From positions 99,092-110,091 of IMG/VR virus record IMGVR_UViG_2974499940_000001: 11,000 nt of DNA; one strand, written 5' to 3'. A program made the position numbers and the translations under genes. Below, piece after piece: positions 1,701 to 7,569 of this stretch. Every line of letters starts with the position of its first letter. Within the stretch, counting starts at the first letter, position 1. The stretch comes from a virus. Lineage: Duplodnaviria; Heunggongvirae; Uroviricota; Caudoviricetes; Demerecviridae. The notes below the pieces were generated by a model, which did not search any database, was not told where the DNA came from, and saw only the letters and a program-made list of their open reading frames with translations.

Positions 1701-1903
1701 ATATTATTTTACCTTTTTATTTTTCTTGCCTAACGCCTAGTTTTATGCTAACCGCGCAGCGGTATAGTAAAGAGCAAAACACGGCGAAGCCACCAGGGCG
1801 ACGGGTGAAGGCTTTACTTTAATATTACCCCACCGCATTTAGCTCGTTAGAAAGCGTTTTAGGCCGCTTAAAATTGATTGCAGTTGTTAACACTACCTTT
1901 CTA

Positions 1904-1923
1904 CCCTGTATATTTATACAGTA
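1904..1923. promoter_or_regulatory. LexA (SOS) box-like palindrome CC-CTGT-ATATTTAT-ACAG-TA
   Basis: CTGT-N8-ACAG at 1906-1921; 17/20 match to the gammaproteobacterial consensus TACTGTATATATATACAGTA. Binding is inferred. Confidence 0.7.
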
Positions 1924-1931
1924 GGATAACC

Positions 1932-2013
1932 TGTGGATAAGTCTGTGGATAAGTCTTTATATCGCCGCCTATCGTGTCAAATCATTTTGTGCTGTTAATA
2001 AACTTGTGGATAA
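1932..2013. promoter_or_regulatory. DnaA-box cluster 1 (co-oriented)
   Basis: Perfect TGTGGATAA (reverse complement TTATCCACA) at 1932-1940, 1944-1952 and 2005-2013; degenerate TGTTAATAA at 1993-2001. Both pairs have 3-bp gaps. Confidence 0.8.
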
Positions 2014-2165
2014 CTTAAATGATAGTGGTTCTCACTTAGGCCGATAGTTTCTTATAGTTATTATTTCTCATTAATTTATATGTATATTATACATCATGAA
2101 ATAGTTAGTTAGCTAACGAGATTTTTCGTGATTAATAGTCTGCTGATAGTTTAGGCCGTTACAAT

Positions 2166-2173
2166 CCACCAGC
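2166..2173 (-). promoter_or_regulatory. Chi site GCTGGTGG
   Basis: Exact CCACCAGC on the plus strand. A second copy in the same orientation lies at 33-40. Confidence 0.5.
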
Positions 2174-2261
2174 ATGATTATTATTCTAGTAATTATTAGT
2201 CTGCTATCTTTCCGATGCATACTAACAAATAAAAGTCAATTAATTTATTTCATAAAATAAG

Positions 2262-2340
2262 TAGTTATCCACTGGAAAATAAAAGTCAAGTGGATAACTA
2301 GGAAAATTTCATTTTTGCTTTTGGGGATAAGTTATCAACA
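2262..2340. promoter_or_regulatory. DnaA-box cluster 2 (two oppositely oriented pairs)
   Basis: 8/9 matches: TTATCCACT 2265-2273, AGTGGATAA 2289-2297, TGGGGATAA 2322-2330, TTATCAACA 2332-2340. The first pair lies in a perfect 12-bp inverted repeat (2262-2273/2289-2300). Confidence 0.65.
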
Positions 2341-2604
2341 AGGCTAGAATGCGCCTAAAACGCCCTAGAACGCGATGAAAGTTTTAGCCATGCCATTGCA
2401 TTGCCTACCCTCGTTTATCGCTACCACGAGCTTTTTAGATTTTGTCAAGTAGGGCAAGGCAAATAAAACTGAAAAAATTACTTGCCAACCTGCTGGGTTT
2501 TATGGTATTCGCGCTCCCGTTTCTTTTAATTTTAGTGCGCCGCGCCCAGGTCGCCGCACGCCGTCCGGTGAATCGTGTCTTTACGTTTCTTTACAAAAAT
2601 AAGG

Positions 2605-3537: not shown

Positions 3538-3945
3538 ATGACTAACGTTAAAACCGCAAAATTCGCTTGGAATGAAGAAAACACTCAGAAAGCTGTTTCT
3601 ATGTACCAGCAGTTAATCAATGAAAACGGTTTAGATTTCGCAAATAGCGACGGCCTGAAAGAGATTGCAAAAGCTGTTGGTGCGGCTTCTCCCGTGTCTG
3701 TTCGCTCAAAATTGACCAGTGCAAAAGCCTACCAGAAAAGCGATAAGCCGCGTAAAGTTGGCGGCGGCAGTTCAATTCGTAAAGCTCACTATGTGCGCGT
3801 TATCGCTAAACATGCCATCGATTCCGGCATTATCAAAGACGCTGACGATCTGGCGTCACTGGAAAGTGCAAAACTTGAAACGCTGGACGCCGTGGCGCAA
3901 CTGTTAGGCGTTGCCGATGAAGTGAAACAAGCCGCAGGCGAATAA
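3538..3945 (+). CDS. A2: A2 protein, DNA-binding pre-early protein required for second-step DNA transfer
   Basis: The 135-aa sequence MTNVKTAKFAWNEENTQKAV... is recognised as T5 A2; helix-turn-helix-like segment (LKEIAKAVGAASPVSVRSKL); synteny with A1. Confidence 0.93.
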   Translation: MTNVKTAKFAWNEENTQKAVSMYQQLINENGLDFANSDGLKEIAKAVGAASPVSVRSKLTSAKAYQKSDKPRKVGGGSSIRKAHYVRVIAKHAIDSGIIKDADDLASLESAKLETLDAVAQLLGVADEVKQAAGE

Positions 3946-4230: not shown

Positions 4231-4318
4231 TGTTGCAAATTATAACGCCTAGATATAAGGCGTTATATTTGGCAATATTGCCGTTATTAATCTAATCCCT
4301 TTAATGGAGTTTATTACT

Positions 4319-5989
4319 ATGATTATTTCCGCAGAAAAACAAACCGTTATCCTGAAAATGGCCGCTGATTTCAATTTCTACGGTAAACGCCTGCGCGCCA
4401 CTAAATTGGAAGTTTGTGACGATATTTCGAAAGCGGTATACGATACTACTAAACACTCCACCGCCATTTGTGATTGGTTGGAAGCAAATAAACCAGTGAA
4501 ACCAAAAGCGGCGAAAGTAGCAAAAGCCATTAAAAACGATGAGCGCCCAGAAGCGGCGGGGATTGTTTCTAGCACGGTTGAGCAATGGGAAGTAAAGCAG
4601 GGTAAACGCTTTATTATTACGTCGATTCAGAATAATACTTTCCCGCATAAAAACTTTTTAGCCTCACTGGAGCAATTTGCTAAATATATCGGCGCTGATT
4701 TGCTGGTTAGCAAGTTTATTTATAACAAAAACGGTTTTCAAAATGGCGAGGGTGCAGAAGGAATAAAATATGATTCCGCATTTGACAAATATATCTGCAA
4801 TAAAAACGTGTTTTTGAATAATCGCCGTTTTGCTTTCATGGCTGAAATTAACGTTTTGCCAACCGCAGATTATCCGCTTTCTGGATTCGCTGAAACTGCA
4901 ACGGCGCTTAATCTGGAAGGTCTGGCAATTGGTCACGCTAAAATTACCGCTGAAAGCGTACCAGCTTTAAAAGGTGAAGTAGTGCGCCGTATGTACTCAA
5001 CCGGAACGGCAACGCTCAAAAACTACATTCAGCAGAAAGCAGGACAAAAAGCGGAAGCACTGCATAACTTCGGTGCGCTTATTGTTGAGTTCGACGACGA
5101 CGGGGAATTTTTTGTTCGCCAGCTTGAAACAATGGACGAAAGCGGCGTGTTTTATGATCTGAATGTTTGCGCTACTCCTGCCGGATGCTATGAAACAACG
5201 GGGCATGTTTTAGGCTTGCAATATGGCGATATCCACGCCGAAAAATTAGATGAGGAGTGCGCCGCCGCATCTTGGGGGCATGGTGATACTTATGGGCTTG
5301 TGGATATTCTTAAACCAAAATATCAGTTTGTACATGACGTGCATGATTTTACATCGCGCAACCATCACAACCGCGCATCGGGTGTATTCCTAGCGAAACA
5401 GTATGCAGCCGGACGTGATAAAGTTCTGGATGATCTTATCGATACGGGGCGTGTGCTGGAATCAATGGAGCGTGATTTTAGTCAAACGATCATCGTAGAA
5501 TCTAATCACGATTTGGCGCTATCCCGTTGGCTTGATGATCGTAATGCTAACATTAAAGACGATCCAGCAAACGCGGAACTATATCACCGCCTAAATGCCG
5601 CGATTTATGGAGCTATTGCAGAAAAAGACGATACTTTCAACGTGCTAGATTATGCGTTGCGCAAGGTTGCAGGTTGTGAGTTTAATGCCATTTTCCTAAC
5701 GACTGACCAATCCTTTAAAATTGCAGGCATTGAATGCGGCGTACACGGTCACAATGGCATTAACGGGAGCCGTGGCAATCCGAAACAATTTAAGAAATTG
5801 GGCAAATTAAACACCGGACACACTCATACCGCCAGCATTTACGGCGGCGTTTATACCGCTGGCGTGTCTGGTAGTCTGGACATGGGTTACAACGTTGGCG
5901 CGTCAAGCTGGACGCAAACGCATTTAATTACCTATGCAAACGGTCAGCGCACTTTGATTGACTTTAAAAACGGTAAATTCTTTGCGTAA
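4319..5989 (+). CDS. A1: A1 protein (host DNA degradation, pre-early shut-off, second-step transfer); metallophosphoesterase-type nuclease domain, 556 aa
   Basis: Size, sequence and synteny match T5 A1. Motifs GDIH, HDVHD, SNHD, HGH and GHTH. Start moved from 4304 to 4319, where GGAG (4306-4309) gives a 9-nt spacer. Confidence 0.93.
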   Translation: MIISAEKQTVILKMAADFNFYGKRLRATKLEVCDDISKAVYDTTKHSTAICDWLEANKPVKPKAAKVAKAIKNDERPEAAGIVSSTVEQWEVKQGKRFIITSIQNNTFPHKNFLASLEQFAKYIGADLLVSKFIYNKNGFQNGEGAEGIKYDSAFDKYICNKNVFLNNRRFAFMAEINVLPTADYPLSGFAETATALNLEGLAIGHAKITAESVPALKGEVVRRMYSTGTATLKNYIQQKAGQKAEALHNFGALIVEFDDDGEFFVRQLETMDESGVFYDLNVCATPAGCYETTGHVLGLQYGDIHAEKLDEECAAASWGHGDTYGLVDILKPKYQFVHDVHDFTSRNHHNRASGVFLAKQYAAGRDKVLDDLIDTGRVLESMERDFSQTIIVESNHDLALSRWLDDRNANIKDDPANAELYHRLNAAIYGAIAEKDDTFNVLDYALRKVAGCEFNAIFLTTDQSFKIAGIECGVHGHNGINGSRGNPKQFKKLGKLNTGHTHTASIYGGVYTAGVSGSLDMGYNVGASSWTQTHLITYANGQRTLIDFKNGKFFA

Positions 5990-6834: not shown

Positions 6835-7569
6835 ATGAATAAATCTATTATTAATTCTTTCCGTAATTTCCCGCATATTTCCCGCGTCATGATTTGGGAT
6901 TTAGACGGCACTATCGTTAATTCTTTCCATCGTGTAGCGCCTTGCTTTGATAATGAGGGCAATTTAGATTTAAATAAATATAAAAATGAAGCCTGCAAAC
7001 ATCATTTAATAATGCAAGATACTTTATTGCCATTGGTTGAATATATGCGCCAGTGCATGAATGATGCAAATACTTTAAACATTATTTGCACCGCTCGATT
7101 GATGAGTAAGTCGGACTATTATTTCTTGCGCAAACAAGGCTTGCGAGGTCGAGGAAATAGCAATATCCGCGTATTTTCCCGCGACACACTGCATAAATAT
7201 TTTAAAGCTGATAAAGTTAGCGAAATATACCACAGCAAAGACGCAGTATATAAATCTTATTATTTTGAATTATTTAAACAGTTATATCCGAACGCTGATT
7301 TTACAATGATTGATGATCATAAAGGTGTGCTATCGGCGGCGGCATCATACGGATTTAAAACGCTGGACGCACAAGCCGTTAACGATATTCTATCAATCGG
7401 TGTTACATTGATTGGTGAAACCTTTATTGATGAATCGCTCGACGATGATAATGATTATCAGTTCCTAGCCGACCGCCTGCAATTATGTTGGGAAGGTATG
7501 ACCGAGGAAGAACGCGCAGAATATAGTTGCAGTCCTCAACAGTACATCGAGAAATTAAAAGTTGCGTAA
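6835..7569 (+). CDS. dmp: Deoxynucleoside-5'-monophosphatase (HAD superfamily)
   Basis: 244 aa; HAD motif I WDLDGT, motif II CTAR, motif IV IDD; last gene of the T5 pre-early operon. Confidence 0.93.
   Translation: MNKSIINSFRNFPHISRVMIWDLDGTIVNSFHRVAPCFDNEGNLDLNKYKNEACKHHLIMQDTLLPLVEYMRQCMNDANTLNIICTARLMSKSDYYFLRKQGLRGRGNSNIRVFSRDTLHKYFKADKVSEIYHSKDAVYKSYYFELFKQLYPNADFTMIDDHKGVLSAAASYGFKTLDAQAVNDILSIGVTLIGETFIDESLDDDNDYQFLADRLQLCWEGMTEEERAEYSCSPQQYIEKLKVA

Follow-up and report, generated by a model that had tools for sequence, protein, structure and literature searches.

Transfer of the phage T5 genome into the cell halts after 8% of its length, and the reason for the halt has been a question since the 1960s. 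Membrane-bound DnaA on DnaA boxes is the sole current proposal and is itself unproven. The repeats that come closest to the element treated here are Repeat Regions 1 and 2 of T5, made up of inverted repeats A, A', B, C, D and B' (GenBank AY587007; Davison 2020, bioRxiv 10.1101/866236). Eight DnaA boxes, in pairs 3 bp apart, are common to 'IRC-spacer-IRD' and its inverted injection-stop partner, a 52-bp spacer separates repeats D and C, and an HNH gene splits Repeat Regions 1 and 2 in T5 and not in most relatives, the unsplit form being the ancestral one (Davison 2020, bioRxiv 10.1101/866236). The published descriptions of the T5 repeats do not identify the end of repeat D as a LexA site (Davison 2020, bioRxiv 10.1101/866236). 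The present analysis concerns the interval 1854-2363 of the window, that is, of the whole 11-kb stretch of DNA that was analysed, which is the final 11 kb of a 110,091-bp record of a T5-like phage. The interval contains one arm of a conserved, paired and inverted module of consensus sites for host proteins, which have fixed spacing and lie on the first-entering DNA, and one of the two arms is located at the mapped pause.

Relation of the interval to the T5 repeat regions

The closest named relative of the phage is AKFV33 (Escherichia phage, genus Tequintavirus), with 95% identity. The window is oriented in reverse of the standard T5 map, and its gene order agrees with that of T5 and AKFV33. 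The interval is an untranslated spacer that separates the divergent pre-early operons inside the terminal repeat, upstream of the T5.011 homologue. Its GC content is 32%, with 27% in the AT-rich core and about 40% in the surroundings. An initial annotation, made from the letters of this DNA alone, had described the interval as a composite docking or decoy element with no credible open reading frame; the longest frame found is 35 amino acids, and every element of that description was found in the order and at the position given for it. A search of the whole window against Rfam at E <= 1 gave only sub-threshold chance matches.

Because the position and the gene order are those of T5 and AKFV33, and because the T5 annotation names the parts B, C, D, B' and palindrome D, the interval is almost certainly the copy of the T5 pre-early Repeat Regions 1 and 2 in this Tequintavirus, in the ancestral form without the HNH gene. 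It shares with these regions the location, flanked on one side by the T5.011 promoter and on the other by the leftward pre-early operon, the order B', D, spacer, C, B, the paired DnaA boxes 3 bp apart and the 51-bp spacer. It differs from them in that no HNH gene lies between C and B, so that the two regions are fused, in that the B arm is cut to an 11-nt perfect core, and in the presence of an extra DnaA-like allele at 2262-2340.

The conserved module and its inverted twin

Related sequences were sampled at 29 loci through the adjacent T5.011 protein, so the sample is not biased towards the motifs. Twenty-three unique upstream regions, the window's own included, were aligned, and 51 unique copies of the module were compared, taken from both positions and from four distant genera. 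Positions 1610-2036 are conserved in 23/23 aligned sequences. The family-wide unit is 1838-2036 only and comprises the B' motif, the LexA box, three boxes in 12-bp phase, the 51-bp spacer, the second DnaA pair and the 23-bp distal block. In the 51 copies the information content is 1.79 bits per position for the LexA 16-mer (1.90 for CTGT and 1.92 for ACAG), 1.5-1.8 for the DnaA boxes, 1.57 for the distal block, 1.11 for the spacer and 0.75-0.93 for the flanks. CTGT...ACAG is retained in 44/51 copies, and every sampled genome from which both copies were recovered has at least one intact LexA box. When Pectobacterium phage My1, Vibrio phage X1 and Proteus phage PL1 were compared with BLAST, only the LexA box and the first DnaA pair were still detected, in the gap after the pre-early genes; these two elements are present in the Klebsiella relatives too. 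The A2 protein is merely 40% identical in the Vibrio and Proteus phages.

The LexA box agrees with the 20-bp consensus TACTGTATATATATACAGTA, as quoted in PMC8072944, at 15/16 positions of its core. The pattern CTGT-N8-ACAG occurs once only in the window (1906-1921; 0.10 expected), and genome-wide both AT-centred near-consensus LexA boxes fall in this module or in its twin. The T5 counterpart of the twin's 20-mer, TACTGTATATTTATACAGTA, is labelled merely 'palindrome D' (GenBank AY587007). Both boxes resemble enterobacterial LexA operators in having CTGT-N8-ACAG with an AT-only centre and an overall match to the consensus of 17/20 here and 19/20 in the twin. The box in the window appears to differ from such operators in that neither a conserved overlapping promoter nor a regulated gene is evident; it also stands directly next to a DnaA array, in a phage that is strictly lytic. 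A near-perfect LexA site in these repeats appears to be unreported. No LexA or SOS box in T5-like phages was found in the searchable literature, outside which Davison 2015, Heusterspreute 1987 and Wang 2005 fall, and these could name the site. Earlier publications cover the DnaA boxes and the B/B' bracket as well as the inverted repeat of 131 bp.

Seven of the eight matches to the DnaA box with at most one mismatch in the window are inside the 510-bp interval (3.2 expected for the whole window), and those with one mismatch start at 2265, 2289, 2322 and 2332. Genome-wide, five of the six perfect TTATCCACA boxes are found in this module or its twin. The boxes of the pairs 1932/1944 and 1993/2005 are 3 bp apart, and the distance from D to C is 51 bp, against about 52 bp in T5 Repeat Region 2. 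The distance between the LexA box and the DnaA boxes is constant, 26 bp from start to start, in all T5.011-anchored loci. The final base of the LexA core belongs also to the weak box at 1921-1929, and LexA and DnaA may accordingly compete or cooperate there. The array is similar to the clusters of oriC, datA and DARS in that several close consensus boxes stand in fixed phase; it differs in its 12-bp period and in the lack of GATC, 13-mers and a conserved unwinding element, and opposed boxes of the DARS type occur in only 9/23 of the phage sequences.

The distal block contains half-sites (AAATGA ... TTCTCA) that are common to many AATGAGAAT-n-ATTCTCATT palindromes in the injection-stop region (G000:C1:97500-97740). 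The shared half-sites suggest that one further DNA-binding protein may recognise both.

The inverted twin of the module is found at G000:C1:97736-97867, about 1.2 kb before the window and 3.1 kb from this arm. It is 78% identical to window positions 1906-2037, and the match starts exactly at the LexA box. The module of about 131 bp thus has an inverted injection-stop copy in the same genome, as does Repeat Region 2 of T5. The twin resembles T5 Repeat Region 3 (inverted repeat D', spacer, C'): it is an inverted twin of 1906-2036 with the same LexA box (T5 palindrome D), DnaA pairs, distal block and flanking CCTAAAACG motif. It differs from the arm in the window in its location, beside the DRC/DRD repeat arrays and the 7.9% nick, and in having a conserved spacer sequence of its own. 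Between the two arms of one genome the LexA box is 0.93 identical, the boxes and the distal block 0.81-0.87 (distal block 0.87) and the spacer 0.56. Since motif identity is 0.81-0.93 against 0.56 in the spacer, and each spacer is conserved among orthologues, the arms are better described as separate protein sites than as a pairing stem. An RNA or DNA stem between the arms was rejected on the same ground, the inter-arm identity being concentrated in the motifs.

About ten copies of GTCGGATTTGCACA, with minor variants, are located upstream of the twin (G000:C1:96700-97740). This array may correspond to the T5 'direct repeat D' array. In Klebsiella phage Roth39 (L040 3037-7001) and Pectobacterium phage My1 (L037 3050-7001) a T5.011 homologue is found on the opposite strand, at the far end of the inter-arm segment, with an identity of 35% overall and 53% across the C-terminal part. 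Recombination between the inverted repeats, with inversion of the cassette, would be expected to give the layout seen in these two phages.

The bracket and the variable right-hand part

The inverted-repeat bracket of the initial annotation consists of a perfect 10-mer that by itself is at chance level (about 0.7 expected per 1.2 kb, own estimate). When extended, the repeat covers 27 nt with 74% complementarity. The bracket is real despite the chance-level 10-mer, because it is homologous to the T5 inverted repeat B/B', which is 37 nt long and 86% complementary and in which B' holds CCTAAAACGC and B holds GCGTTTTAGG. The B arm is conserved among the 23 aligned sequences. In each arm a copy of the motif CCTARAACGC stands some 43 bp from the LexA box on its outer side, and repeat B holds tandem copies. 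Given these dispersed copies, the bracket is formed by two members of a motif family and is not a closed frame.

The expectation that motifs would be more conserved than spacers holds in the left 200 bp. Of the elements further to the right, the opposed DnaA pairs, the Chi segment and the AT-rich core are all missing from about half or more of the relatives. The single bracketed composite is thus replaced by a mosaic: the AT-rich tract, the segment with Chi and the second cluster of DnaA-like boxes are peculiar to certain lineages and do not belong to the proposed device. In the other allele of 2262-2345 a palindrome around AAAAGTCAAG is retained, with arms that are not DnaA-like.

The 87-bp segment 2148-2234 is a presence/absence polymorphism, with hegG (HNH endonuclease) in its place in 11/23 sequences (L003-L028). 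A homing site could be provided by the uninterrupted segment, in which Chi is surrounded by an invariant 16-mer. Two Chi octamers are found in the window (0.17 expected) and six genome-wide, where the expectation for the two strands combined is about 1.5-5 and varies with the Markov order. The second Chi of the window, at 33-40 on the minus strand, is inside a T5.014-like coding region and is present in 29/29 related loci (L003-L031). In the sampled 8-kb loci the Chi octamers are nearly all co-oriented, with L020 as the exception, and their direction is that of reading inward through the right terminal repeat from the right end of the genome.

Two further observations were made in and beside the right-hand part. 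Positions 2080-2094 form a 15-bp perfect palindrome, ATGTATATTATACAT, which on the minus strand reads as an extended -10 (TGTATAAT) and is not palindromic in relatives. Direct repeats about 757 bp apart connect 2401-2420 and 2497-2514 with 1643-1662 and 1740-1757; the repeats at 2401-2514 have the appearance of a degenerate second copy of the promoter and leader region of T5.011, followed only by a minus-strand open reading frame of 5-13 codons.

A promoter scan of the interval found no strong promoter. Strong plus-strand promoters are located at 2823-2850 and 2957-2985, both outside the interval, and experimentally characterised T5 promoters occupy the same places as the T5.011-type and plus-strand promoters here (published T5 paper). 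At the high-coordinate side the first-injected end is near 7.7 kb of the window, beyond dmp, and the gene for the receptor-binding protein follows dmp beyond the boundary of the terminal repeat. The features are collected in Table 1.

Table 1. Features in and around the interval 1854-2363, with positions counted from the first letter of the window.
Feature	Position	Strand	Sequence or size	Remarks
T5.011 homologue	629-1639	minus		DUF7566
T5.011-homologue promoter	1671-1700	minus	TTGCCC-18-TATCAT	outside the finding; marks its left border
Left bracket arm, T5 'inverted repeat B''	1838-1864		core GCGTTTTAGG at 1854-1863	core is a copy of the dispersed motif CCTARAACGC
Sigma-70-like site	1887-1914	plus	TTAACA-16-TATATT	10/12 match, -10 inside the LexA box; weak candidate
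LexA (SOS) box	1904-1923, core 1906-1921		CTGTATATTTATACAG	forms the outermost part of T5 'inverted repeat D'
Rest of inverted repeat D	1921-1952 (boxes)			repeat D spans 1906-1946
Weak DnaA box	1921-1929	minus	TTATCCTAC	first of three boxes in 12-bp period, with 1932 and 1944
Perfect DnaA boxes	1932-1940, 1944-1952, 2005-2013	minus	TTATCCACA	only TTWTNCACA matches in 11 kb
Spacer D-to-C	1947-1997		51 bp	conserved among orthologues; 56% identical to the twin spacer
Variant DnaA box	1993-2001	minus	TTATTAACA	pairs with TTATCCACA at 2005-2013, 3 bp between; in inverted repeat C (1998-2036)
Distal block	2014-2036		23 bp, consensus CTTAAATGATAGTGKTTCTCACT	kept in both copies and in Proteus, Pectobacterium and Klebsiella relatives
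AT-rich repeat tract	2037-2066			one to about four units among relatives; shortest form in the window
AT-rich block	2067-2147			in 19/22 related sequences, T5 included
HNH-alternative segment	2148-2234			confined to the 12 HNH-less sequences; hegG with its own promoter takes its place in the remaining 11, among them T5
Chi	2166-2173	minus		intact in 12/12 HNH-less sequences
DnaA-like palindrome, 'allele A'	2262-2300		arms TTATCCACT at 2265 and 2289	one mismatch; 9/23 sequences
Back-to-back variant boxes	2322-2340		TTATCCCCA and TTATCAACA	allele A only
Right bracket arm, T5 'inverted repeat B'	2353-2373	plus	CCTAAAACGC (2354-2363), then CCTAGAACGC	tandem
A2	3538-3945			pre-early gene, after the interval and small pre-early genes
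A1	4304-5989			pre-early gene
dmp	6835-7569			last listed before the repeat boundary

Proposed role and alternative explanations

The initial description of the interval as non-coding and of cis-acting type, with clustered consensus DnaA and LexA sites on first-injected DNA, is supported. The reading to which the analysis leans, tentatively and with somewhat less than even confidence, is that of a cis site which would be loaded with host DnaA and LexA and would act together with the injection-stop twin. Occupancy of the module by both proteins is probable. On entry into the cell each arm would be bound by one LexA dimer and, cooperatively, by an array of host DnaA, and both arms could then serve as cis-acting nucleoprotein anchors by which the first-step DNA is held or paused. 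For T5 a second band of first-step DNA, as yet unexplained, is described near 5.8 kb, close to this arm (Davison); the arm in the window would be a secondary stop matching that band, and Davison's DnaA model would be extended by LexA. A role of the module in the injection pause is possible but rather doubtful. It is unlikely that LexA, with DnaA, is a working part of two-step injection, such that a LexA dimer on each arm sets or stabilises the pause and the SOS state of the host, or LexA cleavage from the A1-dependent breakdown of host DNA, tunes when or where transfer resumes.

Several points weigh against loading with DnaA and LexA as the basis of the module. One substitution in CTGT or ACAG is present in each of 7/51 copies, which shows that one arm can lose its LexA box; natural variants of a single arm are L005, L007, L014 and L022 for the arm in the window and L013, L019 and My1 for the twin. 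T5-type phages are routinely propagated on recA hosts, and growth on such hosts implies that LexA cleavage is not required for the second transfer step. Proteins on DNA that is already internal have no obvious way to halt DNA that is still outside. For the DnaA boxes the BF23 paper itself treats binding and function as unproven. The palindrome, the distal block and CCTARAACGC could, finally, be sites for phage proteins instead.

This last possibility, in which pre-early proteins such as the DNA-binding A2 with A1 recognise the three motifs and the likeness to LexA is incidental, is decidedly improbable. A2 is annotated as DNA-binding, is required for the second transfer step, binds as a dimer and has a helix-turn-helix-like stretch in its sequence, and the distal block and CCTARAACGC are conserved in the module without a known host partner. 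However, the palindrome matches the host LexA consensus at 17-19/20 positions, flanks included, and CTGT-N8-ACAG persists across genera in which A2 has diverged to the identity given above. The A2 model, moreover, is all-helical without a LexA-like winged helix and has no PDB match at E < 1. This AlphaFold2 (AF2) model has a mean predicted local distance difference test score (pLDDT) of 85.3 and consists of two all-helical parts and a low-confidence linker, with a weak three-helix likeness to helix-turn-helix proteins and best PDB rows at E > 1; a Pfam search of A2 and A1 gave no match. Conservation of the helix-turn-helix-like stretch of A2, IAKAVGA..SVRSKL, extends to the Vibrio phage, and the Proteus phage retains part of it. 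A transcriptional device is given the same low probability. The LexA box would here be the operator of the weak rightward promoter TTAACA-16-TATATT, or LexA and DnaA would be roadblocks that insulate the divergent pre-early operons. This would account for the sigma-70 match with its -10 in the LexA box and for the retention of the -35 in most copies of this arm, and box-bound DnaA can block RNA polymerase, as Schaefer and Messer are said to have found. The -35 is, however, absent from T5 and from every injection-stop copy, the nearest gene downstream of the promoter is more than 500 bp off, and the characterised promoters are all outside the interval. The operon between the arms is inverted in the relatives from Klebsiella and Pectobacterium and the boxes are unmoved, so the boxes are not tied to the T5.011 promoter. 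The same inversion, with the T5.011 homologue in opposite orientation between the arms of Klebsiella Roth39 and Pectobacterium My1, would fit recombination arms, that is, inverted copies providing homology for inversion or exchange of a variable cassette, aided by co-oriented Chi. The inter-arm cassette is poorly conserved and the Chi sites in the repeat have nearly all one orientation, but homology arms should be evenly conserved, and between these arms the spacer is 56% and the protein-site motifs 81-93% identical, which leaves this explanation very unlikely.

The three remaining alternatives had been offered by the initial annotation. A host-primed replication origin, with a cluster of DnaA boxes beside an AT-rich unwinding region, agrees with the five co-oriented boxes that adjoin DNA of 27% GC. 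The AT-rich tract varies, however, in unit number, and the HNH gene interrupts it in half of the relatives. The interval has no 13-mer with two or fewer mismatches, and GATC, of which the window has 33, occurs 0 times in its 510 bp. The origins of T5 lie close to the middle of its genome, and the first-step DNA does not carry the replication genes. Without a conserved unwinding element, 13-mer or GATC the origin is most unlikely. A shield against RecBCD or A1, in which Chi and bound host proteins protect the injected DNA, would be in line with a Chi that is invariant in 12/12 HNH-less sequences, within an invariant 16-bp block, and with the Chi at 33-40 in all related loci. RecBCD recognises Chi only from the 3' side of GCTGGTGG. 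The minus-strand Chi is consequently read only by RecBCD that travels from low to high coordinates, from the injection-stop side, and an enzyme entering at the first-injected end near 7.7 kb meets the wrong face. The Chi segment is also missing from T5 and 10 other sequences, the second Chi is within a coding region, and the genome-wide excess of Chi is unconvincing. With a Chi that faces away from the first-injected end and is present in 12/23 sequences only, the shield is highly improbable. Hardly credible is a titration sponge or decoy that soaks up LexA and DnaA, derepressing SOS and blocking host initiation. High-quality LexA and DnaA sites are indeed clustered, but each terminal repeat offers two LexA and about eight DnaA boxes, whereas a cell contains roughly a thousand or more copies of either protein; by these general-knowledge figures the boxes are too few. 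The host chromosome is destroyed in any case, and a sponge needs neither the fixed spacing nor the paired inverted layout.

New in this analysis are the rejection of the larger composite, the observation that 2148-2234 holds either the HNH gene or Chi, the argument from Chi orientation and two extra conserved motifs, the distal block and CCTARAACGC. The negative verdict is useful in itself, as the larger 'hub', with Chi, the AT-rich core, the second DnaA cluster and the bracket as a unit, fails in comparison with relatives. In both arms the element that is conserved best is a LexA operator sequence of the highest grade, found from Escherichia phages to Vibrio and Proteus phages, and it names a second candidate host factor beside DnaA.

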